A stretch of 64,000 nt of DNA from Candidatus Nezhaarchaeales archaeon (lineage in GTDB: Archaea > Thermoproteota > Methanomethylicia > Nezhaarchaeales > WYZ-LMO8), in NCBI GenBank assembly GCA_038887515.1, contig JAWAKK010000001.1, positions 480,001 through 544,000 of the forward strand, in the 5' to 3' direction. Below the pieces are notes generated by a model. It saw nothing but the letters and a program-made list of their open reading frames with translations, searched no databases and was not told the DNA's origin. Position numbers and translations under genes: made by a program. Within the stretch, counting starts at the first letter, position 1; each line of letters begins with the position of its first letter. This document shows, piece after piece, positions 49,781 through 64,000 of this stretch.

Positions 49781-50156
49781 AAGATTCTCTACGTAAACCC
49801 AGCAAGATAACCCTTTCCCTTCAAAATCTAGAAGCCCATATTAGGTTCTGGCTTAAGCGGCCAATGTTAAGCTATACTTGATGTAGTGGATAGCTGAAGC
49901 CGCTACATCGACAACTTGGTTAGTTCAAGTAAAGAAGCTCAAAAGTATACCATCAAATGCTGTTTAAGCCTATGGACTGGGGAATATTCTTCGCCGAGAT
50001 TTCTTACGACCAGTTAAGCGCCTTTAAACTTCATTTTATACTTACTTTATTCACATAGCGACTAATTAAGACTTTCAAGTAGAGACTTCAGGAAATTGAA
50101 AATATTTTTAAGCGGAAACCTAGATGTAGTAGCTATACGTCTCCTTGGAGTGATGA

Positions 50157-50456
50157 ATGATGCCAAAGATTGAAGACATAATAAACGAATTGGAATCTAA
50201 GGGGTTATCGACCTTAGAGGAGCTTAAGGAGGCCTACGCAAAAACGTATGCCCTTAAAACTATTGCTTTAACCGGAAAGACCCATCAAATATCTATGCCG
50301 GACGAAATGTTCTCGATGCTTAAAGACCTAACGAAGAAGCTTAAAAAGCTAGGTGTTAAGGGTAAGATTAACGTCAACGACCTAACGATGTTATTGGTGC
50401 TCATGGGTTATTCTAGGATAAGCAAGATCCTTAAAACAACTGAGGAGAGAGCGTAG
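50157..50456 (+). CDS. Small basic protein, possible ribbon-helix-helix
   Basis: RBS GGAGTGA. KTHQISMPDEMFSMLKDLTKK...NVNDLTMLLV gives a strand-helix-helix pattern. Confidence 0.6.
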   Translation: MMPKIEDIINELESKGLSTLEELKEAYAKTYALKTIALTGKTHQISMPDEMFSMLKDLTKKLKKLGVKGKINVNDLTMLLVLMGYSRISKILKTTEERA

Positions 50457-50458
50457 AA

Positions 50459-51040
50459 TTAAAGGTCTAACATTAAGCTCCTACTGCAGAGTCCATATAC
50501 GATTGCCTTGCTACCACGCATTTCAACTTTAAGCTTCTTCTTAGAAGGCCTTGAAGGCAACTTCCTTATTTCCTCGGCTATTAGTTTTATGGATATTTTT
50601 CTAGAGTATAGGAACCACAACCTCTTAAACCGCCCGAGCTTCTTCCTTGACTTTACGAGTTCGCGAAGGATGCTTACTTCATCCGTACATGCATAGCCCA
50701 TCTCTACTAACTTAAGGACCTCTCGAGAGACGTATGTCTTCCATCCCTTGTACTTTAAGGACTTGTCGTATTTGGATGCATAGGAGTAATATCTGTTGAC
50801 GAAGTCCCATATCTCGTAAAGAGACGCTCCTTGAACGAATTCGTCCGCTACAGCTCTAAAGACCATTTTATTGACGCGCTTTGGCGGTTTGTAAACCTTG
50901 ACGTCTATGCTCAATATGAAGCTATCATGTCCTTCATTTACGTAATTTCTTACTATAGCTCTCAGCTTCTCGAAGACTTCGTTTGGCTTATCGCAGAGCT
51001 TGAGGGTCTCGATGAGGTCGAGCTTGCGTTCGCTATGCAT
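50459..51040 (-). CDS. Hypothetical basic protein
   Basis: Overlaps the DegT stop by 8 nt; Lys/Arg-rich. Confidence 0.65.
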   Translation of the reverse strand: MHSERKLDLIETLKLCDKPNEVFEKLRAIVRNYVNEGHDSFILSIDVKVYKPPKRVNKMVFRAVADEFVQGASLYEIWDFVNRYYSYASKYDKSLKYKGWKTYVSREVLKLVEMGYACTDEVSILRELVKSRKKLGRFKRLWFLYSRKISIKLIAEEIRKLPSRPSKKKLKVEMRGSKAIVYGLCSRSLMLDL

Positions 51041-52163
51041 ATATTTTAACCGCCTCTCTAACGGCTTCTGCAGCCCTCTGAACGTCGCCCTCGCTCATTC
51101 CGTGGTGCACCGGTAAAGATAAGAGCTTTCTGGAAAGTTCTTCGGTGACCGGTAAGAGTCCCTCCTTCGTATTAAGGAGTCTCCTATATAGCGGCATTAA
51201 GTGCACTGGCGTCTTGTAGTAGACCATTGCTCCTATACCCTTACGATTTAAGTGCTCCTTAACTTTATCCCTAAGCGTAGCATTCCTAAACTTAACCGTG
51301 TACAGGTACCAATTGTGCTTGTAGCCTTCAGGCTCGAAGGGTAACTCAACTTCGTTTAGGGGCTCAAGTAGCTCGGTCATTATCTTCGCATTCCTTCTCC
51401 TAACTTCAAGGAATTTAGGTAACTTCTTTAATTGTACCCTACCTATTGCTGCCTCTATTTCCGGCATCCTAAAGTTTCCCCCGAGCCTAGTCGAAACAAG
51501 TTCGTCTCCCACCCACTCTTGTCCGTGAGTCCTTATAGACCTTAAGGTCCTAGCAAGTTCAACATCGTTTGTAGTTATCATACCTCCCTCGCCGGTCGTC
51601 ATTACCTTGCTAGGGTAAAAGCTAAAGCAACCTGACGTACCAAATGAGCCTGCACGTTTACCTCTAATCTCGGAACCATGAGCTTGAGCTGCGTCCTCCA
51701 CTACCGGAATCCCGTACTTTTCGGCTATTGAGAGTATGGAGTCCATGTTCGCCATTAAGCCGTAGAGATGGACCGGTATTAGTGCCTTAGTCCTACTGCT
51801 TATCCTTCTTTCCACATCAAGAGGATCCATGGTGTAAGTCTTCGAATCTACGTCAACGAAGACAGGTCTAGCGCCCAGTAAGAGGACTACGTTTGCCGTC
51901 GCTACAAACGTTAATGATGGTAGAATGACTTCGTCGCCTGGTCCTACCCCTAAAGCCATGAGGGAAATGTAGAGGGCCGCCGTACCGGAGTTCACAGCCA
52001 CCGCGTTTTTGGTGCCTATGTAAGATGCGAATTCTTCTTCGAATAGCCTTACGTTATGACCCCCCTCAGGCGAGGAGTGTGTTAAAGCTCCTTGGCTTAG
52101 CAGCTTCGCGACTTCAGCTACCTCCTCTTCGCCTAGGACTGGTTTGTTTATTGGTATATTCAT
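51033..52163 (-). CDS. DegT/DnrJ/EryC1/StrS PLP aminotransferase
   Basis: NSGTAAL, EDAAQAHG, FSFYPSKVMTTGEGG. Confidence 0.93.
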   Translation of the reverse strand: MNIPINKPVLGEEEVAEVAKLLSQGALTHSSPEGGHNVRLFEEEFASYIGTKNAVAVNSGTAALYISLMALGVGPGDEVILPSLTFVATANVVLLLGARPVFVDVDSKTYTMDPLDVERRISSRTKALIPVHLYGLMANMDSILSIAEKYGIPVVEDAAQAHGSEIRGKRAGSFGTSGCFSFYPSKVMTTGEGGMITTNDVELARTLRSIRTHGQEWVGDELVSTRLGGNFRMPEIEAAIGRVQLKKLPKFLEVRRRNAKIMTELLEPLNEVELPFEPEGYKHNWYLYTVKFRNATLRDKVKEHLNRKGIGAMVYYKTPVHLMPLYRRLLNTKEGLLPVTEELSRKLLSLPVHHGMSEGDVQRAAEAVREAVKIYA

Positions 52164-52255
52164 TTTAGCGCGCCCTCAAAGCTTCCTCTCTCCTACGGCT
52201 CTAAAAACTTAAACCTTAATTGAACTATGCGTGATAATTAGTTGGAGGAAGGACA

Positions 52256-53500
52256 ATGAATAATAGAGTGTCCGTGGTAGCTGTTGGTTCTCCAGTTCAT
52301 CCACTACAACAACGAACGAAAGCCTTTCACATGCTTTTAAAATCTATTGAAGACCGTGGCTTAGACGTTGAAGTCGTAGCTGAACCTATATCTTCAATGG
52401 AAGAAGTTTGGTCCATTAGACATAAGATACTTAGCTTAGACAAGCCTCTAGTCATACTACACCTTACGGGCGGAACCTCTAAGCTAGCAGTCGAAGTAGC
52501 GAAGTGGTGTAATACTCCTATTACGCTCGTTACTCACGGTGAAGGCAATTCACTACCCTCAGGCCTAGAGACGCTTGTTAGGCTTAAGCGTCTGGGGCTT
52601 AGCGCCAAAATTGAGTTCCTCGAGCCTAGTAGTGGAACACTCAAAATCAAGGAGTTGGAAAGCGTCTTCGTAGGCTGCATGACTATTATAGGTGAAGTTT
52701 CTCCGAGGACATTCGATATTACTTGCCCAGCTACTTTAGCTCATAGACTTAAGGTTAAGATCATGCATTTAGCGGAGGAGGAGCTCGAAAAATATCTTGA
52801 AAGGCATGTGCGGGACGCTGAGCTTTCTCATAGTTTTCTCTCTGAGTTTAGGGGTGAAGTAAGGGTACCAGTACAAGAGCTTCAATTGAGCTTAGCTTTA
52901 AAGGAGGCTATCAAGGAGGCTGTCGAGAAAATGAAGTGCAACGTATTTACTGTTGACTGCTTCGAAATCCTTAAGAGGATTAGCGTAACTCCTTGCTTGG
53001 CCATATCTTTACTATCTGAAGAAGGTTTCTTAGGAATCTGCGAAGCTGATGTACAAGCAGCGGCATGCATGATTGCAATTAGAGAACTAGTTCACCCATT
53101 CATGGGCAACATAGTTGCGGTAAACGACGAATCGGTGACGCTAGCTCACTGTACTGCTGCTACGGTGTTAGCTTCAAACATTAGCAAGGTTAAACTGAAA
53201 AGCCACTTTGAGACCGACAGGAGCGTGGCTGTTGATGTTCCATTAAGGTTAGGCGAGGCTGTAATGATTAGTTGCGACCCTCAGCTCAGAGATGCGTACG
53301 TAGTTGAGTGCTACATTGATAGAAGTCAGCTCGAAAAAGAGAGTATGTGTAGAACTCAAGTATTGCTTAGACTTAAGTCTAAGCAATCAAAGGTCTTGGC
53401 TGAATGGCCTGGCGGTCACGCAGTCTTAGCAGTCCAAGTCGGTCTAACAGAAGTTAAAAACGCCCTATTGAAAAGAGGATTTACCGTCAAGGAACTTTAA
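52256..53500 (+). CDS. L-fucose/L-arabinose isomerase-like protein (divergent)
   Basis: TGGT, NSLPS, FTVDCF, TPCLA, CEAD, LAHCT, HFET, CRTQ. Confidence 0.7.
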   Translation: MNNRVSVVAVGSPVHPLQQRTKAFHMLLKSIEDRGLDVEVVAEPISSMEEVWSIRHKILSLDKPLVILHLTGGTSKLAVEVAKWCNTPITLVTHGEGNSLPSGLETLVRLKRLGLSAKIEFLEPSSGTLKIKELESVFVGCMTIIGEVSPRTFDITCPATLAHRLKVKIMHLAEEELEKYLERHVRDAELSHSFLSEFRGEVRVPVQELQLSLALKEAIKEAVEKMKCNVFTVDCFEILKRISVTPCLAISLLSEEGFLGICEADVQAAACMIAIRELVHPFMGNIVAVNDESVTLAHCTAATVLASNISKVKLKSHFETDRSVAVDVPLRLGEAVMISCDPQLRDAYVVECYIDRSQLEKESMCRTQVLLRLKSKQSKVLAEWPGGHAVLAVQVGLTEVKNALLKRGFTVKEL

Positions 53501-53612
53501 CTCCTTAAACTGGTGAGGAACGTTTGCTTAAGAGTTAACCTTAAAATCTATGGAACCGAATCTTAGACGGTCGTTTAATGTTTATAAACCGAGACATAGC
53601 AACGTATATAGC

Positions 53613-53945
53613 ATGGCCACGTTGAACACGGGTCTAATAATAGCGGGCGCCTACGCCGACAAGGCTAGAAGGGTCCTAATGGCTCAAGTAAAGGGTCAAG
53701 TAAACCCGCAAGAGGCTGTAAGGGCTTCGGCTGAGCTAAACAAGGTACTATATGAAGTCATAGTCAACGGGATTAAGGCCGATAAAGGCGATGTAGTCAG
53801 GGTAGTCATAGACTACGAGCTCAATAATAACCAGATAAAGTGGAACTTTGAAACTTTAAGGATAGAGTTCTTTAAGAGAGTTCCCGATGAAGAAGTAAAA
53901 AGGAAGATTTGCGAGGCCTTAACTAAGGTCATGGGTGCACGGTAA
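53613..53945 (+). CDS. ThermoDBP/DUF2258 single-stranded nucleic-acid binding protein
   Basis: LNTGLIIAGAYADKARRVL...AELN...DKGDVVRV. TTTATAAA at 53581-53588 implies a leaderless ATG at 53613. Confidence 0.88.
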   Translation: MATLNTGLIIAGAYADKARRVLMAQVKGQVNPQEAVRASAELNKVLYEVIVNGIKADKGDVVRVVIDYELNNNQIKWNFETLRIEFFKRVPDEEVKRKICEALTKVMGAR

Positions 53946-54071
53946 TTTAGCTTAAACTTAGAAAGCGACGACACTCCACCTTATATTTTTAAATTTTACG
54001 TAATCCTCTTCATGAAAGAAAGACAATAAAAGTGAATAAAAAAAGAATTCTAGTACCGATGTTTCTTTCTT

Positions 54072-54362
54072 CTACTTCTTCCTCTCTACCGTTATCTCTA
54101 TCGTGGAGACGTTTCTAGCTTGCTCGCCTTCGCCGACCTTCTCGGTACCTATTTTGACGTCCGTTATCTCTACCTGGTTTACTAGGAACCTGGTCTTCAC
54201 GATCTCGGCTGCATCGACGGCTTTCGATATAGCCCTCCCTCTAGCCTTTATTATTACTTTGTCCGCCCCCTGGTTGAACTGAATTACCGTTGCAAGGACG
54301 TAGTTCATGGTTGGTTTGTTTCCAACTAAAACAACATTCTCTCCTGTTTTTGGTTTGCTCAT
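54072..54362 (-). CDS. albA: DNA/RNA-binding protein Alba
   Basis: [44 protein letters not shown] before ATG 54362. Confidence 0.95.
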
Positions 54363-54446
54363 GTCTTGTAACCTCCGCCTCGATGGTTTGTCGTAGTCTG
54401 ACACTTCTGTATCCGGTTAGTTTTAAACTCTTCGCTTAAACCTGGT

Positions 54447-55205
54447 TTATCGGAATAAGTCCTCCTGAGGAGGCATTATTAACTCTCTTACCGTTGCATT
54501 GTCGCTCTTCTCAAACTTCAATCCTCTTACGATAGCGGCTGGTACTCCTTCATTGGCCTGACCCATCACCAGCTCCGCTGCAGAAGCTATTTCATCCGCG
54601 ATAGCTGTTATCTTAGACTTAAGGACGTAACCGAAGAGGTCGCTCTCTCCTCTCCTATCTCTTAGAGGCCTTATTCCGGCTACACCTATTGCCACGTTTA
54701 TCTGACCCCTCCTAAAGGGTCTTCCATGCGTGTCGCTAATTATGACTGCTACGTCAACGCCCTTCAGTTTCTTAATGGTTTCTCTTATCTTAGCTGCTTC
54801 TTCATCTGGATCTGGCGGTAGAGTTACCGCGCTAAGCCCTCCATCGACATTAGAGACGTCGACGCCGGCGTTAGCGCACACGAAACCGTGTTTGGTCTCG
54901 CAAATAATGAGGTTACTTCCTAGCTTAACTATTTTGTTGGTTTCTCGGAGTATTACTTCAACGAGTTCTGGCGGTTTCCCTAAGGCTCTCGATAACGCTA
55001 TGGCTTTATCCGACGGCTGTACTTCACTTAGCCTATATATTAGACCCCTTGCCTTGGAAACTACTTTCTGAGAAATCACGAGGACATCGTTATCTATAAG
55101 CGGCGTCCCCTGTTTCTCAGCTGCCTCACATATGAGGATAGCTATGTCATCTCCAGGCTTTACCGGTACGGGGATGCCCCCTATTGGTATTATCTTTATC
55201 TCCAT
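54447..55205 (-). CDS. cofE: Coenzyme F420-0:L-glutamate ligase
   Basis: GDDIA, QKVVSKA, ANAGVDVSN, SDTHGRPFRRG, DEIASAAEL, DLFR. Confidence 0.92.
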   Translation of the reverse strand: MEIKIIPIGGIPVPVKPGDDIAILICEAAEKQGTPLIDNDVLVISQKVVSKARGLIYRLSEVQPSDKAIALSRALGKPPELVEVILRETNKIVKLGSNLIICETKHGFVCANAGVDVSNVDGGLSAVTLPPDPDEEAAKIRETIKKLKGVDVAVIISDTHGRPFRRGQINVAIGVAGIRPLRDRRGESDLFGYVLKSKITAIADEIASAAELVMGQANEGVPAAIVRGLKFEKSDNATVRELIMPPQEDLFR

Positions 55206-55208
55206 GGT

Positions 55209-55607
55209 TTAACACGTAATTTCTTCATCGACCATGCTTTTAAGCCTTGCATAAAGTTTTGAATGCAGGCTTCCACAATAGCTGATATATAAGTTAAAGC
55301 ACTTAGCTTTAGCGGATGCCGTTAATATCTCGCATATCCTAAGATAAGCCTTCAAGCTGGCGAATTTGCTTGCAACAGACAATCTGGAGGCGTGAGAATA
55401 AAGATCTAGAATGACGTTGCTATCCCTAGAGATTTCTAGAGGTAGTGATACTACTTGCTCAAATTGCTTAAAAAGGTCTAAAACCTCTATCAGCTGGAAT
55501 GTCTCCAAAGGTTTATCGGACACTACGATCTTCGCAACGCCCGACACCTTCAATGACTTTAAGAGAGGTCTATTGCCATCGCCAACAACTAGGTAGGTCC
55601 TCCCCAT
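55209..55607 (-). CDS. Hypothetical protein
   Basis: RBS GAGGTG before ATG 55607; ends 3 nt before cofE. Confidence 0.65.
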   Translation of the reverse strand: MGRTYLVVGDGNRPLLKSLKVSGVAKIVVSDKPLETFQLIEVLDLFKQFEQVVSLPLEISRDSNVILDLYSHASRLSVASKFASLKAYLRICEILTASAKAKCFNLYISYCGSLHSKLYARLKSMVDEEITC

Positions 55608-55620
55608 ACATACACCTCGG

Positions 55621-55956
55621 TTAAAAGAACAAATGATAGAAAAGGCATGCACCTATATGGCTACAGGTATGTCTCCTAGACTTAAAGTACGGCTTGTAGG
55701 GTTGATTGCATGTACATATAAGCGACCCTCTACCCTCGTCGTACTTAACTACGTATAGATGCTCAGCGTCACCAAGCTTCTTCCTCCCCCTAACTATCCA
55801 CGTGTTTTTACGGCACTCGTAGACGTCGTACACCCTCGCAATACTTCTTTTAACCCACGACTTACCCTTTGCCTCAGTTAATTCAAGAAGCTTCTCTACG
55901 ATGCCGCAATCTAATGTTTTTGGGCTGGCATCAGGCTCTCTACGCCACATCTTCAA
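55621..55956 (-). CDS. SWIM zinc-finger protein
   Basis: YVVKY...LICTC-x14-CSHIGA (CxC-xn-CxH). Overlaps the end of the RadA paralogue gene. Confidence 0.85.
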   Translation of the reverse strand: MKMWRREPDASPKTLDCGIVEKLLELTEAKGKSWVKRSIARVYDVYECRKNTWIVRGRKKLGDAEHLYVVKYDEGRGSLICTCNQPYKPYFKSRRHTCSHIGACLFYHLFF

Positions 55957-56905
55957 CCCCCCTCTCGGTTATCATATAACTTGCCGACGCACCATAGGGT
56001 AGCGTTGGGCTGTCAAGGACGGTCATCGTACCCTTTAGAAAGCCTCTTTCACTCTTGGTGCTTAAAAAGAACCTATGCGTTGTGGCGTGAGCAAGAGTTG
56101 TGCCTCCTATGGGTTTCAGCCTCTCATTGATATTTACGAAAGCCACTGGCACCTCCATTACCGGCGTCGTAACGACCACTATAACTTCGTATAGCCTGGC
56201 GATCCTTATAAGCCAGTCAAGTACGTAACCCAACCTGCTCTGCCTCAAGGCTAAAGACTCCCTTCCAGAGTATTCAGTTCTAAACCTTGACATTAGAGAG
56301 TCGACGATAACGAGCTTTATGCCCCCCTCTATTGTCCTCACGAGATCCGAGGTTACTACCTGAAGTAGGTGATCCGTATTTATGACGTCTATGACGTAGA
56401 TGTTGTTCAACGCGTGTTCGGGGTCAAGACCGAACCTCTCAGCTATAGACCTGACCCTGCTGGGGTCGAACGTCCCCTCAGTGTCCATGAAGTAGCATTT
56501 ACCTCCAATACCTCCCTTATTGGTCGATAGCTGAACTGTAATTGAGAGTTGCAGGCAAAGTTGGGTTTTTCCTGTTCCAGGCTGCCCGCATAACTCGTAG
56601 ATAGCCTTAGGCCTTAAGCCACCGTTAAGGAGGAGGTCTATGCTCTTGACTCCGATAGTCAAATGCGGTAGAGGTCTTTGAACTGAGTAGTCAGAAGCCT
56701 TAACAGCCTTTAAAGGCATGAAGATGCTCCTAGCGTGTGCAAGCGCCCTCCTTAGAGTCCTCTCATCGGCGTCAACTAAGCCTAATAGTTCATCGATATT
56801 AAACAACGATAGATGTTTGGCCGAGCATACACCAATACTTCGAAGCTTCTCTGCGGTCTTAGGTCCTATGCCCTCTAGATCCTCGAGCTTAACCTCTCCA
56901 CTCAA
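55940..56905 (-). CDS. radA: RadA/Rad51-family recombinase, divergent paralogue retaining the N-terminal HhH domain
   Basis: LEDLEGIGPKTAEKL, GQPGTGKTQLC, DTEGTF, IVDSL, LALRQ, GGTTLAH, LDSP. Confidence 0.85.
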   Translation of the reverse strand: MSGEVKLEDLEGIGPKTAEKLRSIGVCSAKHLSLFNIDELLGLVDADERTLRRALAHARSIFMPLKAVKASDYSVQRPLPHLTIGVKSIDLLLNGGLRPKAIYELCGQPGTGKTQLCLQLSITVQLSTNKGGIGGKCYFMDTEGTFDPSRVRSIAERFGLDPEHALNNIYVIDVINTDHLLQVVTSDLVRTIEGGIKLVIVDSLMSRFRTEYSGRESLALRQSRLGYVLDWLIRIARLYEVIVVVTTPVMEVPVAFVNINERLKPIGGTTLAHATTHRFFLSTKSERGFLKGTMTVLDSPTLPYGASASYMITERGVEDVA

Positions 56906-57105
56906 TTAGAGACACCTCTAAGATCACCTATTAGCAAGTTAATGGCTGTAAGAGCTCTAAGGGCAAGGGCTAGGCGTCGATCGACTTCTTCGATACTAAT
57001 TTCTGATATCATTGCTTGACAAGCTTCTAAGATTGCTTGGAACTCCAGCAGACTGTACTCTTCGATGAAGAGTACCCTTTCTTCTTTGGCCCTCTTAGCC
57101 CTCAA
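56902..57105 (-). CDS. Small helical hypothetical protein
   Basis: 67 aa, 4-nt overlap with the RadA paralogue start. Confidence 0.55.
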   Translation of the reverse strand: MRAKRAKEERVLFIEEYSLLEFQAILEACQAMISEISIEEVDRRLALALRALTAINLLIGDLRGVSN

Positions 57106-57227
57106 CTTTAACTCTCTCTTTACCCTCTAGCCACTACAGGATTTGTACATCGTTAACAAAATCGTATAGAGGCCTTTACATGAGGCCCCTGCGATCCAAG
57201 TTAGAGAACACCCTTTCCTTTTCCTTT

Positions 57228-58511
57228 CTATTCTCGTATCAACCAGCCCTCCAATGCTTCAAGCTCCTCTAAAGCATTAAGGCCACGAACCGTAATTTTG
57301 AGCCAGTACTTACCGTCGGCTCCCACGACTTCGTTTGCAAGTCCATGGATTAATAGTGCGTTTACGAGCTTTGAAGCTTCCATCGATGATACGTCGAGCC
57401 TATGTATCGCATATGATATTACTGAATCCCTTGTTGACGCTCCATCTCTCAAGAAGTTCAAGACCTCGTACGCCATCTTAGCTTTATTGCCCAGCTTTGC
57501 TTGAAGCATTGATTTAGGGACCTCGACAGGGACCTTAAGTTCTTCAATCGCACTTATCTTTGCCGTCTCCTCAAGAGGAACCTCAACCACTCCACTTGAA
57601 TAAGCGAGACTATACGCGAACCTCTCTTTACTGTTGAGGAGCCTGAGATATCTTCGACCAACAACTGCACTAACATATCTTACATCTTCTGGTGTAATGG
57701 GTGAGCCCATGATTGCCATGCGGGCTCCCGCTCTCAATTCCAGCGGTATAGATGATGTGCCGTTCGCGCATGCGATAACTATCGAGGACTCGGCCCTCAT
57801 CTTGTTAAGAAGGTCTATAAGGTTCTTCCAAGCAGAGCCTATGAACTCTTTAAGTATGTCGACGTCGCATAAAGTCACGACCCCCTTAAAACCGCTTTTT
57901 AGTAAATGCATCAATATGGCCATGGATATAAGCGAAGCATAACTTGGCGGTAGCTCGTACATCGATATCAGCGCTTGAATATTCGTAAGCTCAAAATGGC
58001 TACTACATGCCGCTCCAAGCCTACCCCTCCCCATAGCCTCCACTATCTCTATGAGTTCAACGGCATCTCGATTCGTTAGTTCGTTTGATTCTAACTCCAG
58101 CGCGGATGTAATGTCTTCAATTGTCGGATCCTTTCCGGTCAGATACGTTCTAGTAAGCGCTCTTCTAAGAGACGAGGTTTGCGCGTTATTCAAGTTAAAG
58201 GCTCCCTTGAAGGCATCAGCAACGAAGTGTGCGTAGACTAGCTTGTCTCCGACTGGCTTAAATGGATTGAATGAGGCGTTTAGACCAAGACTTACATGCT
58301 TAAGCCATCTAGGACCCTCAGCTATGTAGGGCGATATTACCACCAAATTTGCTGAGTCCGCCAACTGTCCCAGCAAGTGGTATGTAGCGTTTAAGCTCCA
58401 CGCACCGCTGATTACTAGTGGGTGTGCGCTAAACAAGTTGACCCTTAAAGTACTCGTCAGCGCCTCCGCGTCATCCTCAATTATAAATCCAACATCAACC
58501 TCAAAGCTCAT
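57228..58511 (-). CDS. Degenerate HerA/VirB4/FtsK-like ATPase with probable C-terminal winged helix
   Basis: FNPF...FVADAFKGAFNLNNAQTSSLRRAL...Y....PTIEDI resembles the helical insert of this family. No intact Walker A or B. C-terminus VNALLIHGLA...LKITVRG. Confidence 0.55.
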   Translation of the reverse strand: MSFEVDVGFIIEDDAEALTSTLRVNLFSAHPLVISGAWSLNATYHLLGQLADSANLVVISPYIAEGPRWLKHVSLGLNASFNPFKPVGDKLVYAHFVADAFKGAFNLNNAQTSSLRRALTRTYLTGKDPTIEDITSALELESNELTNRDAVELIEIVEAMGRGRLGAACSSHFELTNIQALISMYELPPSYASLISMAILMHLLKSGFKGVVTLCDVDILKEFIGSAWKNLIDLLNKMRAESSIVIACANGTSSIPLELRAGARMAIMGSPITPEDVRYVSAVVGRRYLRLLNSKERFAYSLAYSSGVVEVPLEETAKISAIEELKVPVEVPKSMLQAKLGNKAKMAYEVLNFLRDGASTRDSVISYAIHRLDVSSMEASKLVNALLIHGLANEVVGADGKYWLKITVRGLNALEELEALEGWLIRE

Positions 58512-59134
58512 GCCACAACCCCCTTGACGGCTCTAATAAGCTCGTCGAACTCCAGAACACAGATCTCGGACCTCGGCAACCTGGCCTTAACGGCTCCCAT
58601 GGTCGTCGTAAGGCCCTTAACGACTTCATCTACTACTTCCTTTGCAGTCTCCAAGAACTCCTTATCGAGTGGCTTGCGTACTTTAATCATAATTATAAAG
58701 CATGCATCCCCCGACGTTTTCTTAGAAACTATCAAGTTGCTTTCAAAGCCGGTCTTCGCCGCTACATCTATTGCACCTAGAAGCTCTACAACTCGGCCTC
58801 CCCCCAAGGACCTTACTTCCAAGCACCCTAAGCCTAGAGCTTCAGCACCATTTCTCACTACGACTGCTGGTCCTATGCCTTCAACTTCATATACTTGAAT
58901 ATCGCTTATTGTCGACGCCTTACATGCACGCTCTTTTCTCTTCGACCTCGGCCACTTGAGTCTCTTAACGAGTTTGTATAGGTACTTTCCAACTTTGTAG
59001 ATGATGTACGCCCCTATGGGTATCAGAAGCCAAGGAAAGAAGACGGATAACAACAATACTAGCAATAGTAATGTTGTCCTTAGGCTTATTATCCCTTTCC
59101 TAGAGGTTGAGGGTCTATTAACAGGTTCTATCAT
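58508..59134 (-). CDS. Hypothetical membrane-anchored protein
   Basis: N-terminal hydrophobic stretch, then a basic linker and soluble domain. ATGA overlap with the next gene. Confidence 0.7.
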   Translation of the reverse strand: MIEPVNRPSTSRKGIISLRTTLLLLVLLLSVFFPWLLIPIGAYIIYKVGKYLYKLVKRLKWPRSKRKERACKASTISDIQVYEVEGIGPAVVVRNGAEALGLGCLEVRSLGGGRVVELLGAIDVAAKTGFESNLIVSKKTSGDACFIIMIKVRKPLDKEFLETAKEVVDEVVKGLTTTMGAVKARLPRSEICVLEFDELIRAVKGVVA

Positions 59135-59222
59135 CGTCCCATCGCTTTTAAGTCAAGCTAAAGCACCCAATAAACAGTCGGACCATCAAAATGCGCTCGA
59201 GACATCTTAAAACAACATTGTA

Positions 59223-59236
59223 GGAGTGCGCACTCC
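59223..59236. promoter_or_regulatory. 14-bp perfect palindrome in divergent promoter region
   Basis: ggagtgc|gcactcc between the membrane/RadA run and udg. Confidence 0.4.
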
Positions 59237-59289
59237 CTACCGGCTACACGGGCTTAATCAATCATTGTAAAGCTTAAAGGTGCCTTTCT

Positions 59290-59940
59290 ATGCTGAATTC
59301 TATGATTACTGTGAATAGCGAAAGGGCTAGACTACTTGAAGAAATAGCAAAAGAGATCGCTAATTGTAGGAAGTGTAGGCTGTGGTCTTCGAGGACTAAG
59401 CCTGTTCCAGGTCGAGGAAACATAAATGCAGACGTCATACTTATTGGGGAGGCGCCGGGGTACAACGAAGACCTAGAGGGAGAACCTTTCGTTGGAGCTG
59501 CAGGTAAGCTTTTAGACCAACTCTTAGACATAGCCCGTCTTAAACGGAAGGAAGTTTTCATAACTAATGTATTAAAATGTAGGCCGCCGAATAATAGGGA
59601 TCCATTACCAGACGAGATTGAGGCATGCGGTCAATACCTCGATAGGCAGGTAGCGGCCATAAGGCCCAAAATTGTCGTGTGTCTCGGTAGACATTCAACA
59701 AGCTACGTACTACTTAAAGGCGGTATAAAGGTTCACTTTGGAGGAAGTGCTGTAAGCATATCGGCTGTCAGAGGTCAACTATTTAAACTGAGCTTTGAAG
59801 GGCTTAACCTTCTAGTAATACCTACTTATCACCCGGCTGCGGGGCTATATAACCCTAAATTGAAGAAAGAATTGCTTAGTGACTTCGACTTTATAGGGAG
59901 GATCGTAGAGAAAGTTCGTGAAGGCTTGTTAACCATTTAG
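59290..59940 (+). CDS. udg: Uracil-DNA glycosylase family 4 (Fe-S)
   Basis: CRKCRL, GEAPG, PFVGAAG, NVLKCRPPNNR, TYHPAA. Confidence 0.95.
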   Translation: MLNSMITVNSERARLLEEIAKEIANCRKCRLWSSRTKPVPGRGNINADVILIGEAPGYNEDLEGEPFVGAAGKLLDQLLDIARLKRKEVFITNVLKCRPPNNRDPLPDEIEACGQYLDRQVAAIRPKIVVCLGRHSTSYVLLKGGIKVHFGGSAVSISAVRGQLFKLSFEGLNLLVIPTYHPAAGLYNPKLKKELLSDFDFIGRIVEKVREGLLTI

Positions 59941-59978
59941 AGCTAAGCTATTTAATTAAGTTAGGCGATAGAAGGTTT

Positions 59979-60037
59979 CGGGATGATGATGAAGGGATGA
60001 GGGGCTTTCTAGTGCTCGAAATCCGCGGGACTGACCG
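59979..60037 (+). ncRNA. Box C/D sRNA candidate
   Basis: AUGAUGA(UGA) 59983-59992, CUGA 60031-60034, CGG/CCG flanks, AT-rich TATA-like box at 59951-59960. Internal C'/D' unclear. Confidence 0.55.
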
Positions 60038-60040
60038 CTT

Positions 60041-60766
60041 ATGATAAGGGGTTTGTTTATAGCCGGTGGAGGCTTTTTTGGATCCAAGGCTTTACGCGAA
60101 GCTTCAAACTATGCCTCAATAGTAGTTGTCGACGTCGATAAGGATTGTCTTGCAAGTAAAGACGTTGAGCTCGTAGTCTCGTTAGAGGGGCTAAGCAAAG
60201 AGCACTTTAAGAGCTTAAAGTCTATTCTAGTAGTCGGAGATTCGTCAAGTGTTTTAAGTAAGGCACTTCTCCTAGGCTTTAAGCCATCACTGGTAATCCC
60301 AGCAATTCCAAGACACTTTGCTGCGGATTTCCTAAAGCATGAACTTGAGGCTTAGGGCTTCAAAGTAATGCCCTCTCCCGACGTTATGAGGGCAAGCTTG
60401 AAATCTTTCCCTAAAGATTTGGTGGTGAATCTAAGCTTTAAGGACTCGGTATTCACGTGTAGCTACATGTCATCATGGTCTAAATGTTTGATCCCTTGCA
60501 CCCAGCCTGATACTTGTCCCGTCACAGGCGTATCGAAGCCTAGGCCAATGATCAAGGTTGTTGAAGAAGTCGTACGTTTCGCGGATCTCGCTTTAACATT
60601 GGAGAGCAAAAGGATTGGGGATTTCAGTGGAGGCTTTGAGTTTGACGTTATATGGGATTTCATAAACAAAGTTAAGATTAAAGCTACTAGGAGCGACGTC
60701 ATCGTTTACATAGCAACTGCATGCAGGTGCCACGGCGTGGCAAACTTCTTTAAAGTCGTCAAATAA
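60041..60766 (+). pseudogene. Rossmann-fold (TrkA-N-like) Cys-rich protein interrupted by one in-frame TAG
   Basis: GGGFFG, then IPAIPRH...ELEA-TAG(60353-60355)-GFKVMP. The same frame continues to SY...C...C.QP..CPVTG...ATACRCHGV. Confidence 0.75.
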
Positions 60767-60932
60767 GGTCCGCCTTGATTGTGTAACTCCTTTATCGGCT
60801 TTCTCATGGTAAGCCTTTAATTTAGGATCCGCTTAAGTATTGTGAGCCTTTTAAGTACGTAGACTTTCATTTTACAGTTATCCCTTAATTTAGGGAGTAC
60901 TTCGAGGAAAAATAATTCTAAGTAACAGAGAG

Positions 60933-61721
60933 TTAAATTGATGTAACGAAAAAGCAGGAGGCATCCCCCTTAGCTACGCATTTTAATTCATGAAAATACA
61001 TCGTCTTGTTAAAGTATCGCGAAGCAAAACCACTCAGGATCCCTCTCAACCACTGGCTAAAGCACTTATTTAGACCCTTAACCAAACTGCATTCTATGCT
61101 ATCTAGAAGTTCTACTTCAATTGACGAGTCTTCAAATCTCACATCTATGTTCCTAGCAAATCCACAAGAAAATAGGTAAGCGGTTAAGGCTTCCCACAGC
61201 TCCCTCCCCTTAAGCCTCCTTTGGGCATAGTCCTCGAAGATCGCGGACCCCATTTCGAAACCCTCGTGAAATAAGAATGCTTCGCCCCCGCTTCCAAACT
61301 TGTCTCTGATCTTAATTAGCCAGGCCTTAAGTGTTGTAGCCCTAATTATAATTGCCCTCTCACCTGCAAATATCAGTGGAAAGTGGCATTGATCGTATGT
61401 AAGCCCCTTGAGCGTAGGCCTTATTATCTTGACCTCCACTAAGTTCTTTATAGCTCTCTCTATTGCCTCTTTGACCTCCTCTGGCGATACAGTAGCTCTG
61501 CTAAAATCATAGAAGACTATAAAGGGCGCGTAGGAACCTGGCTCAGCTGGGCCTGAATTCATTATGTGAAGAACCGTCAGGTTATATTTAGCTGCAACCT
61601 CCAGTATGGTAGACATTATACCCGGTCTCACGATATGCTTAATGAAGAAGCCGTAAACACCTTCCTTCAAAATAAGCCTACCTAGATGTAGTGGAATGCA
61701 TTCGCACTCATCTTGATACAA
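60933..61721 (-). CDS. ACT plus V4R domain protein
   Basis: RPGIM (ACT), LFHEGFEMG, SIEC, RGILSG, ELKCVAKGDASCFF. Confidence 0.85.
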   Translation of the reverse strand: MYQDECECIPLHLGRLILKEGVYGFFIKHIVRPGIMSTILEVAAKYNLTVLHIMNSGPAEPGSYAPFIVFYDFSRATVSPEEVKEAIERAIKNLVEVKIIRPTLKGLTYDQCHFPLIFAGERAIIIRATTLKAWLIKIRDKFGSGGEAFLFHEGFEMGSAIFEDYAQRRLKGRELWEALTAYLFSCGFARNIDVRFEDSSIEVELLDSIECSLVKGLNKCFSQWLRGILSGFASRYFNKTMYFHELKCVAKGDASCFFVTSI

Positions 61722-61886
61722 TAATTGTACACCCCTTCTACCGGGTTCTAAGAAGCGTGATAGTCGGAGGTGTGTCTATAGTATTTATTGTCTTCTTTGA
61801 ACTTAAAAGCATTATCTTTAAGAGCTCGCCCTTTGCCAAGCAATCTTAATTAAAATCCTCCCACTACATGATATTAGGTCATTGAG

Positions 61887-62427
61887 TTGAACGAAGAAAA
61901 GGAAGGAACAAAGATTGAAGATATGGCGGGCGACTTTAGCGTATTAAGTAATCCAACAAGACTCAAGCTTTTGATTAATATTCACGAAAAAGGGCCTTGC
62001 ACTTTAAGAGAGCTCATAGAAAACGCTCAGCGTGACGAAAGTACGATTAAGAGGCATTTAAAAGAGCTTATAGACCGTGGCTTCATAGCAAGGTCCTGTG
62101 ACAAGAAGCCTAAGTACTACATAACTAATAAAGGTATTTTAGCCATAACGTTTTTAAGAGTTAAGGTCGAGCCAACAATCGTGCAAGACCTAGCGAAGCA
62201 CGATGAAGTCAAAGTTAAGGTTCGCAGTGGAAGACCTTTCTCCAACTTTTCTTATGCCATTAAAAAAAGCAGGCTTTAAGAGAATTGCATTATACTCAGT
62301 GTCCATTACTTGTATATTTTTAGGTTTATTAGGGCTTGTAGTTTCAAGTGTCGAGCTCCTCTATAGGATTTTATGGTTACTGCTTTGGCTTATCATAGCC
62401 TACGTCTTTAAGTCTCTCGCTTCTTAA
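61887..62427 (+). pseudogene. ArsR-family wHTH regulator with C-terminal TM helices, split by a shift at A7 62262-62268
   Basis: LSNPTRLKLL...STIKRHLKEL...YYITNKG. Removing one A joins ...YAIKK to AGFKRIALYSVSITCIFLG (2 TM). Confidence 0.6.
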
Positions 62428-62430
62428 AGT

Positions 62431-63606
62431 CTAGCTCATCTCTTGAACTGCTTTCTCGATCCTCTCCAGCCCAAGCTCTATATTGGGTATGGAAGTGGCA
62501 TAACAGAACCTTAAGTATCCCTCACCACTAGGTCCAAAAGCCGAACCAGGAATAGTCGCTACGGCTGCTTTTTCTAGTATAAGCTCTGCAAGCTCTGTTG
62601 ACTTTACTCCTAGTTCCTTTACGTTAGCGAATACGTAGAAGGCTCCTTTGGGCATTTTAGCCTTAAACCCTGTTATTCTATTTATCCTCTCAACCATGAA
62701 ACGCCTGCGCTTATCATACTCTTTAACCATTTCATCGATGAACTTATTTACCTCAGGGTTCTTAAGGCCTTCTAGCACTGCCATCTGAGAAGGGCTTGGA
62801 GCGTTGACTATCGTATACTGTTGCAACTTCAACATTTCATTCACTAACCTTTTACTTGCAGCTACGTAGCCTATCCTCCAACCGCACATAGCGAAGGTCT
62901 TTGAAAACGAGTTAACAGTTATGGCCAACTCTTCCATGCCTGGTATTGAAGCTATACTGTAGTGTTTAGCTCCGTCGTATACCAGTTTTTCATATACTTC
63001 ATCCGATATAACGTATATCCCGTTATCCATAGCTATTTCGGCTATCCCTCTGATATCCCTTAGCTCCAATACGGAACCCGTGGGGTTATGAGGCGTATTT
63101 AAGAAGATGCACTTTGTCTTCGAGGTAATTAGTTCATTTACTTTCTCCGGAATCATTCTAAAATCTTCTTCCTCGTCAAGGGGGACTCTAACAGGCTTGC
63201 CGCCAGCCATGATTACCACGGCTTCGTATATTACGAAGCCGGGATCGGGGATCAAAACTTCGTCTCCAGGTTCGACTAACGCTAAAGTTGACAATAGGAG
63301 CCCCATTGAAGCCCCAGCAGTAACCATAACGTTTTCGGCTTTAGCGTCGACGTTGTTTTCAACTCTAAGCTTCTCGGCTATAGCCTCTCTGAGCTCAAAA
63401 AAGCCGGCGTTAGGTGTATAATGCGTATAGCCGAGGTCTATAGCCCTCTTACCAGCCTCCTTAATACATGGAGGCGTTTCAAAATCTGGTTCCCCTATTC
63501 CAAAATTTATTACGCCCGACATTTTTTGGGCTAGGTCGAAAAGTCTCCTAATGCCCGAAGGAGTTATGATTCTCGTCCTGAAGCTTAGCTCTTTAGGCTT
63601 CTTCAA
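62431..63606 (-). CDS. PLP aminotransferase class I/II (aspartate aminotransferase-like)
   Basis: GEPDF, NTPHNPTG, SDEVY, SFSKTFAMCGWRIG, PGSAFG. Confidence 0.93.
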   Translation of the reverse strand: MKKPKELSFRTRIITPSGIRRLFDLAQKMSGVINFGIGEPDFETPPCIKEAGKRAIDLGYTHYTPNAGFFELREAIAEKLRVENNVDAKAENVMVTAGASMGLLLSTLALVEPGDEVLIPDPGFVIYEAVVIMAGGKPVRVPLDEEEDFRMIPEKVNELITSKTKCIFLNTPHNPTGSVLELRDIRGIAEIAMDNGIYVISDEVYEKLVYDGAKHYSIASIPGMEELAITVNSFSKTFAMCGWRIGYVAASKRLVNEMLKLQQYTIVNAPSPSQMAVLEGLKNPEVNKFIDEMVKEYDKRRRFMVERINRITGFKAKMPKGAFYVFANVKELGVKSTELAELILEKAAVATIPGSAFGPSGEGYLRFCYATSIPNIELGLERIEKAVQEMS

Positions 63607-63687
63607 GTCTAACCCCCTTCACGCGAAGTCTCTCAACAACAAGGGTTGTAGCTAGTTAAATCTATCTCAATTCGTTATAGTTGAAGT

Positions 63688-64000
63688 TTAGGTTATTGGC
63701 TTTAGGTAGTCTTGACCTCGCGCTTCAGGTGAACCTATTAGAAGCCTATAATGATCGAGCTTCCCTCTCCAGTAGACTAGCTCCACTTTGCCTCGAGCTT
63801 CGAACTTCTCACCTTCCTCTACTATACCCATATAGAGCCCCTCGTAGCTACATAGCTCCGTCAAACCTTCGACGATAGGTCCGTTTAAGACCTCCACATC
63901 TCCTACGAGCCACTTTGAAGGCATGAATATGGATTCTGAAGAATCCAGCACAACCCCTCTAATAGTGGCTAAGCCTACCGGCTTATACGTAAACTCGCCG
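63688..64000 (-). CDS. C-terminus of predicted archaeal nucleotidyltransferase (COG1665-like), 5'-truncated
   Basis: Frame open to the window edge. SIFMPS...SYEGLY....EEGEKFEARGKVELV...LIGS. Confidence 0.65.
   Translation of the reverse strand, partial: GEFTYKPVGLATIRGVVLDSSESIFMPSKWLVGDVEVLNGPIVEGLTELCSYEGLYMGIVEEGEKFEARGKVELVYWRGKLDHYRLLIGSPEARGQDYLKPIT

Follow-up and report, generated by a model that had tools for sequence, protein, structure and literature searches.

Gene organization of the locus

We analyzed a 64,000-nucleotide (nt) stretch of DNA from a Candidatus Nezhaarchaeales archaeon (assembly GCA_038887515.1, contig JAWAKK010000001.1, positions 480,001 to 544,000), hereafter called the window, and focused on a group of six genes at 55209 to 59134 that encodes a paralogue of the recombinase RadA, a SWIM zinc-finger protein, a HerA-like protein and a membrane-anchored protein. 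The module is present in a single copy in the source genome, which comprises 1.29 Mb in 9 contigs and is 94% complete. The six co-directional open reading frames (ORFs) were found on the minus strand where a preliminary description, made from the sequence alone, had placed them, with overlaps of 4, 4 and 17 nt. In the direction of transcription, the genes are as follows (aa, amino acids).

58508..59134, minus strand: membrane-anchored protein, 208 aa (ORF)
57228..58511, minus strand: 427-aa Walker-less protein with a predicted DUF87/HerA fold and a C-terminal winged helix (ORF and profiles)
56902..57246, minus strand: small conserved gene, interrupted in the window genome (ORF 56902-57105 and decayed part 57106-57246)
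55940..56905, minus strand: full-length RadA paralogue, 321 aa (Pfam Rad51 and HHH_5)
55621..55956, minus strand: SWIM zinc-finger protein, 111 aa, or 109 aa in public gene calls (CxC/CxH motif)
55209..55607, minus strand: small protein without Walker motifs, 132 aa when read from the ATG at 55607 (the longest ORF reaches 55652)

Only the 321-aa protein matched a Pfam family among the six products, and all six are "hypothetical" or nameless in the public records examined.

Properties of the RadA paralogue

The 321-aa protein is a divergent RadA, as the preliminary description had stated. Its scores were 257.7 bits against NCBIfam NF003301 (cut-off 259) and 240.9 bits against TIGR02236 (cut-off 361.15). 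Pfam Rad51 (PF08423) was matched at 207.7 bits (gathering threshold 22, E 2.1e-61) and HHH_5 at 2.2e-5. Five Rad51-family places were found in the source genome, and its two other RadAs scored 480 bits each against NF003301 and 462-464 bits against TIGR02236. The module copy was likewise not the best RadA match in any of the five other module-carrying genomes compared (5/5). As the genome keeps two better RadAs elsewhere, the module protein has, judged by its sequence, the profile of an extra accessory paralogue and not that of a second recombinase.

Walker A (GQPGTGKT) and Walker B (KLVIVDS) motifs were identified in the window protein. Walker A was present in 20/20 module RadAs, and both motifs were intact in all module copies; thus, the paralogue probably still binds ATP. 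RadA and Rad51 protomers dock on each other via the Phe of the FxxA motif. This linker Phe was replaced by A, V, I, L or T in 19/19 module paralogues (Ala in the window) and was kept in the two other RadAs of the genome. The TNQ glutamine was lost in 10 of the 19 module copies; it is Pro in the window genus (4/4) and variable elsewhere.

In a maximum-likelihood tree of 46 RadAs, which was unrooted and contained some long branches, a single branch parted 31 module copies from 14 others (ultrafast bootstrap 78, Shimodaira-Hasegawa-like approximate likelihood ratio test 98, 74% of bootstrap trees). The groups of module RadAs followed taxonomic families.

The second full-strength RadA of the genome (480 bits, C4:16173-17141) is located on a 23-kb contig beside a RadB-like 243-aa gene (C4:18163-18864). 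The same pair was found in three other genomes (G331:C9, G311:C58 and G351:C4), and these lineages therefore carry three full-length RadA homologues. We had considered contig C4 as a plasmid and dropped this idea because of the recurrence of the pair in the three other genomes.

The 427-aa HerA-like protein

The 427-aa protein had been described as a HerA-type fold without Walker motifs, and both points were borne out. The Walker A pattern GxxxxGK[ST] was found in 0/20 close relatives, 0/14 distant relatives and 0/20 operon homologues. Searches with the single sequence gave no Pfam (E<=0.1) or NCBIfam match, and a six-frame search of the genome with PF01935 (E<=0.1) brought three other genes above the cut-off and left the 427-aa gene undetected; three intact DUF87 genes lie elsewhere in the source genome. 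The family profile detected Pfam-called DUF87/HerA proteins in many genomes of the phylum. When it was aligned by hhalign with a Pfam-confirmed DUF87 protein, the match reached 97.1% (E 5.9e-11, 237 columns), and the DUF87 P-loop was aligned to the degenerate 'ISGAWS..LNAT' of the window protein. The ESM Atlas holds a model of the exact 427-aa protein (predicted template-modelling score, pTM, 0.71), for which 10/10 listed structural neighbours were DUF87/HerA/TraG-type clusters at template-modelling (TM) scores of 0.66-0.76. The family is small: 20 proteins of near-identical length were found in a set of 5.8 billion, and 17 cluster representatives were matched at E<=0.001 among 1.84 billion proteins.

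The DUF87/HerA-type region covers residues ~1-330 and is followed by a predicted winged helix-turn-helix at residues ~335-427 (about 57231-57515), which the preliminary description had overlooked. Conservation is strongest in the last ~95 residues, with the invariant residues clustered at 339-422. The profile of this C-terminal part matched 2obp (2.9e-4) and the PadR protein 4ejo (1.5e-3), and its 44 matches at E<=1 were mostly PadR/MarR proteins. The absence of Walker A, the DUF87 matches of profile and Atlas model and the PadR/MarR-like matches thus identify the protein as a predicted catalytically dead HerA-clade fold fused to a putative DNA-binding winged helix.

At one related locus (L091, G010:C14, 6611-8244), this gene is represented by two overlapping ORFs of 232 and 349 aa, the cause being either a frameshift, gene splitting or an error in the assembly.

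The SWIM protein and the last gene product

The predicted SWIM motif, CxC-x14-CxH, was found in the 111-aa protein as C81-x-C83 ... C98-x-H100-x-x-A103 (CTC...CSHIGA). The C, C, C, H and G residues were invariant in 19/19 sequences. The residue after CxHxx was A in 10 and S in 9 of them, and the final Ala of the motif is probably not specific to the Shu2/SWS1 family. With Pfam SWIM (PF04434), the window protein gave no match and 3 of 19 family members touched the model (best E 0.12); a Thermoproteus-type homologue reached 17.5 bits (cut-off 19.6).

An AlphaFold2 (AF2) model of the SWIM protein was obtained with a predicted local distance difference test score (pLDDT) of 82.9 and a pTM of 0.76. 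Foldseek gave no match to this model at E<=0.001. In a VIA comparison with 48,161 chains, the sole match above Z 5 was the SWIM region of ZSWIM8 (9rwz_M: Z 6.1, 89 residues aligned, root-mean-square deviation, rmsd, 4.2), and the next row had Z 3.1. A SWIM fold is supported for the modelled protein by the invariant ligands together with this lone match. Fused SWIM homologues of greater length were sought in the range of 260-2000 aa and none was found, although this counts as weak evidence.

The last ORF, given earlier as 147 aa, most likely encodes 132 aa from the ATG at 55607, as in its relatives and in the Atlas record. It had been left as hypothetical, and a RecA-like nature had been overlooked. 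The Atlas model is weak (pLDDT 0.59, pTM 0.61); the neighbours of this weak model are RadB, Rad51-like, KaiC-like and DUF835 clusters, at TM scores of 0.75-0.81 over 123-132 residues. In families f2, f3, f5 and f9, the proteins at the last position align with the RadA core (hhalign 95.5%, E 1.4e-8); GEAGAGKT is kept in one of them. A search of PDB sequences with the family profile returned nothing useful. The 132-aa protein is probably a truncated RecA/RadB/KaiC-like fold.

At locus L089 (G151:C4, 9705-10502), a 265-aa SWIM protein carries a C-terminal extension where the other loci have a separate last gene; the extension matched the last-gene family at 6.9% at best by hhalign.

The membrane-anchored protein

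The 208-aa protein consists of a hydrophobic span (residues 13-46), a basic linker and an alpha/beta domain (residues ~73-208). The N-terminal span was found in 28/28 family members. It is followed in the window protein by a 30-residue stretch with 12 K/R and 1 D/E, so by the positive-inside rule the alpha/beta domain is predicted to be in the cytoplasm.

Searches with Pfam, NCBIfam, PADLOC and PDB sequences gave no match to this protein. Its AF2 model shows two helices followed by the alpha/beta domain (mean pLDDT 83.9, soluble domain >90). Foldseek matched the model to 3cxj_A, an uncharacterized Methanothermobacter protein, at E 4.2e-4. The nearest solved folds for the domain were the 3cxj protein and YbjN/AmyR, followed by type III chaperones; VIA gave Z 8.4 for 3cxj (116 residues aligned, rmsd 3.3) and 7.8 for CesT, along with many ferredoxin-like rows at Z ~7. 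We did not adopt a YbjN or type III chaperone label because generic ferredoxin-like folds score this high. The model suggests only this much, that the domain is a small one of protein-binding type and not a channel.

Interruption of the small gene

The preliminary description had placed a 122-nt gap at 57106-57227. This segment is not intergenic: translated in the same frame as the 67-aa ORF, it can be aligned to residues 1 to ~45 of relatives of 112-116 aa. The intact ORF (56902-57105, 67 aa, TTG start) corresponds to the C-terminal helical half of these proteins. Homologues of 93-141 aa occupy the small-gene position in 19/20 loci, according to the family alignment. In a DNA alignment, codon 57244-57246 is CTG in the window as opposed to a GTG start in 5/5 aligned relatives, and codon 57127-57129 is an in-frame TAG as opposed to TGG in 5/5. 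The N-terminal half of the small gene is thus lost in the window lineage. Either the C-terminal helical half is still translated from the TTG at 57105, or the small gene is dead; given the loss, either the N-terminal half of the protein is dispensable or the module has partly decayed in this genome.

No known fold or family was recognized for the small-protein family by sequence (Pfam, a profile search of PDB and hhalign). By hhalign, no relationship of the anchor and small-protein families to the other module families or to any DUF87 protein was detected.

Conservation of the module

We compared 20 loci around homologues of the 427-aa protein and 14 further loci, 30 of which in all are module loci. 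The linkage suspected from the single sequence is conserved: the order anchor, dead HerA, small protein, RadA paralogue was found in 30/30 module loci from 14 families of the phylum Thermoproteota. Among the 20 loci around 427-aa homologues, the RadA paralogue was located downstream in the same orientation in all (20/20), and a SWIM gene was present in 19, the exception being L038. Ten of the 14 further loci hold the anchor or an upstream protein, the dead HerA, the small protein and the RadA paralogue; the other four are three true Walker-A DUF87 genes without RadA and one Thermoproteus-type cluster. A SWIM gene stands beside the module in 24 of the 30 module loci.

The closest named relatives of the 427-aa protein come from metagenome-assembled genomes (MAGs) of Candidatus Nezhaarchaeota/Nezhaarchaeales. 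An alignment-based locus search yielded 4 related loci, all from MAGs of Nezhaarchaeota/Nezhaarchaeales or 'Nitrososphaerota'.

In two genomes of family f49 (L069 and L070; G311 and G331), a SWIM gene (115-120 aa) adjoins a gene for a KaiC-like protein of 265 aa (Pfam KaiC 5.7e-53). The anchor/dead-HerA/small/RadA module of these f49 genomes is on a different contig and has no SWIM gene.

In Thermoproteus-type genomes of family f19 (L073, L075 and L098; G236 and G276), SWIM homologues are 194-243 aa long and number up to 9 per genome. Several of these genes follow an active-type 301-305-aa P-loop ATPase (Walker A; weak TrwB/AAA_10 match, PADLOC mads_8 3.1e-8) and a protein with a winged-helix-like end. 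L098 has two further genes nearby, one RadA-like and very divergent, the other encoding a 658-aa DUF87 protein. These clusters possibly represent relatives of the module with a mobile or defence role.

Comparison with known systems

The closest analogues of the module are the eukaryotic Shu complexes. According to passages of PMC6316741, Rad51 paralogues are partnered in the Shu complex by a SWIM protein (CXC...CXHXXA), and the CXC...CXHXXA signature given there for Shu2/SWS1 is present in the window SWIM protein. PMC6316741, PMC11339404 and bioRxiv 10.1101/2025.11.17.685403 describe the partners in Shu complexes as RecA-fold paralogues that are accessory to the main recombinase, one of them ATP-binding and one or more degenerate. 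Human SWS1-SWSAP1(-SPIDR), yeast Shu2-Shu1-Psy3-Csm2 and C. elegans SWS-1/RFS-1/RIP-1 thereby share a parts list with the module, namely its ATP-binding paralogue, SWIM protein and putative degenerate RecA fold. The module differs from them in that the archaeal paralogue is full-length with a helix-hairpin-helix (HhH) domain, and in that the dead HerA-like winged-helix protein, the anchor and the small protein are added.

A literature search found no description of an archaeal RadA-paralogue/SWIM/HerA-like operon. The preliminary description likewise knew of no system of this composition, and it overlooked the Rad51-paralogue/SWIM complexes as the nearest analogue. Any statement on archaeal SWS1-like proteins in Godin et al. 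2015 may bear on novelty; a passage of PMC5727457 cites that paper (Genetics) for Shu2 orthologues 'from archaea to humans'.

With the HerA/DUF87-FtsK clade (HerA-NurA, VirB4, CedB/TedB and TraG/TrwB), the 427-aa protein shares the predicted fold and a collinear profile, and the NPF/NPL-type motif after the first strand also occurs in its family. In contrast to the members of this clade, the 427-aa family has no Walker A, carries a winged helix instead of HerA_C and has no NurA or channel partner.

Extra RecA-family proteins are known in archaea, such as RadB in Euryarchaeota and the aRadC/KaiC-like paralogues in Sulfolobales, and are thought to modulate RadA filaments. These RadA paralogues are short, comprise only the core and have no HhH domain, and to our knowledge they have not been described with SWIM, HerA-like or membrane partners. 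Unlike RadB and aRadC, the module paralogue is full-length and falls just short of the RadA model cut-off; RadB clusters are among the neighbours of the 132-aa protein.

Proposed function of the module

On balance, we lean towards reading the locus as an operon of the chromosome that is inherited vertically and encodes a RadA-accessory (mediator) complex, Shu-like in its working, on a DNA-binding and membrane-tethered scaffold. The RadA paralogue, the SWIM protein and the 132-aa mini-RecA would form a heteromer that binds the end or side of filaments of RadA on single-stranded DNA and aids their nucleation or stabilization, like the eukaryotic Rad51 paralogue-SWS1/Shu2 complexes. The dead HerA-like protein would act through its winged helix as a DNA-binding platform and not as a motor, and the anchor protein would hold this platform at the membrane. 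We read these two proteins as a tethered platform rather than an importer because the HerA fold appears dead and the anchor is not a pore. The other three proteins are said to work like Shu complexes, not to belong to them, because no homology to Shu2/SWS1 was detected. The dedicated recombinase complex of the preliminary description was a reasonable idea in this respect.

Several observations weigh against the Shu-like proposal. The small gene is broken in the window genome. SWIM is not obligatory, as 6 of the 30 module loci (families f5, f49 and f54) have no adjacent SWIM gene. The SWIM family profile matched no PDB chain at E<=10, and in the VIA comparison the Shu1:Shu2 entry 6dex_B (Z 2.5, 88 residues aligned, rmsd 5.4) was level with unrelated rows. 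The 32 SWIM homologues of near length are all archaeal 'hypothetical' proteins and none is eukaryotic. The RecA-like assignment of the 132-aa protein depends on gene position and on a model of low confidence (pLDDT 0.59), and the window subgroup of the last gene gave no sequence signal to its RecA-like positional homologues. Finally, we know of no eukaryotic Shu complex with a membrane anchor or a HerA-like subunit, and half of the operon is left without a counterpart.

A bolder version, which we hold to be unlikely, is that the RadA paralogue, SWIM protein and mini-RecA of Thermoproteota are the prokaryotic forerunner of the eukaryotic Shu complex, mounted on a membrane-tethered dead HerA-type ring that grips DNA with its winged helices. 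If this were true, recombinase loading would take place at a membrane-bound repair site. There is still debate on the role of Rad51 paralogues and of the Shu SWIM protein in helping the recombinase, and where these proteins come from is unclear. An archaeal operon as compact and conserved as this would offer a simple thermostable system for the Rad51-paralogue/SWIM mechanism and a means of testing whether the Shu arrangement predates eukaryotes. The dead HerA fold with a DNA-binding tail, the anchor and the small protein are without a described counterpart and would point to spatially organized archaeal recombination.

Alternative explanations

The preliminary description had inferred a link to DNA transfer of the Ced/Ted type, in which a membrane-tethered apparatus would take imported DNA and pass it to a dedicated recombinase. 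The membrane anchor is conserved in 28/28 family members and always encoded beside a HerA/VirB4-clade fold, true homologues of the 427-aa fold bear TraG and TrwB signatures, and the winged helix could hold DNA. Nevertheless, Walker A is absent from every HerA-like sequence seen (none of 54), so the protein cannot be a motor; the anchor, with its one hydrophobic span and its cytoplasmic domain, is not a pore; and the three intact DUF87 ATPases elsewhere in the genome could serve transport. In import systems of the Ced/Ted type, the ATPase is accompanied by a polytopic membrane channel protein and by pilin-like partners. Neither a pilin nor a polytopic protein is present in the conserved set of the module, whose only conserved membrane protein has one N-terminal span and whose other conserved genes are soluble; CedA, CedB and TedB are set apart here by composition, their sequences not having been compared. 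The transfer inference is accordingly not supported, and we regard the import explanation as distinctly unlikely.

It is improbable that the locus is a domesticated or active mobile-element or defence module, in which the SWIM, P-loop and RecA-like proteins act on foreign DNA. The window module is single-copy, the RadA tree groups track taxonomic families, the udg, cofE and alba flanks are conserved in family f1, and the loci read showed neither an integrase nor repeats. PADLOC gave no convincing match for the window proteins, with two weak P-loop hits for RadA only. In favour of such an origin are the Thermoproteus-type clusters, in which SWIM homologues reach 9 copies per genome and adjoin an active-type P-loop ATPase that touches mads_8 at 3.1e-8, a winged-helix-like protein and a very divergent RadA-like gene.

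To the same low degree, we considered that the 427-aa protein may be mainly a transcription regulator or sensor (a pseudo-ATPase sensing a ligand or a protein) of the downstream radA-paralogue genes, sequestered at the membrane by the anchor until damage occurs. Membrane sequestration of regulators is a known principle, and conservation within the protein is highest in the PadR/MarR-like C-terminal domain, with its invariant residues at 339-422. A structural subunit is a better fit to the close translational coupling with the repair genes and to a stoichiometric gene order that stays constant in 14 families.

The least probable explanation is a replication-fork or chromosome-maintenance factor (fork restart or membrane segregation) with a paralogue independent of RadA, since the loss of the polymerization Phe in 19/19 copies and of the TNQ glutamine in 10/19 argues against a self-sufficient recombinase, even though the paralogue keeps HhH, Walker motifs and most L1/L2 loop residues, and so may bind DNA itself, and udg is a conserved divergent neighbour in family f1.

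Transcriptional organization and neighbouring genes

The module genes are tightly packed, with median junction spacings of -4 to -23 nt across the module loci. The HerA-like and small genes overlap or are <=4 nt apart in 19/19 other loci with an assigned small gene; therefore, no independent promoter is expected in 57106-57227. An independent terminator between the membrane pair and radA-SWIM had been considered as a sign of separate units. No terminator-like site was found on the coding strand, the two detected both being on the opposite strand, and the supposed gap is coding in relatives. Sigma-70 promoter-like sites occurred at chance level and are not relevant for an archaeon. An Rfam scan of 50000-64000 gave no match. 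From each of two metatranscriptomes of the same study, ~3 in 100 reads were read and 0 fell on 54000-60500, too few for a test. A contig assembled from the same sample (a hot-spring metagenome) was identical to the window stretch at a word depth of 15.7; it may itself be the origin of the window DNA and does not count as independent support.

No Pfam family above threshold was found for a 414-aa ORF at 52256-53500 (plus strand) or for ORFs of 104 and 132 aa at 60041-60766 (plus strand). The flanking genes named in the preliminary description were all confirmed by Pfam: udg is divergent upstream (UDG 1e-34), and cofE (F420-0:gamma-glutamyl ligase, 1.1e-74), alba (Alba 1.3e-23) and a ThermoDBP-related gene (3.6e-25) lie downstream. 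In family f1, the udg, cofE and alba flanks are conserved and udg is divergent there too. On the same strand as the module, cofE (54447-55205) is followed by alba (54072-54404), and this order is kept in three f1 relatives. As cofE starts only 3 nt past the stop of the last module gene, cofE and alba may be on the same transcript as the module.

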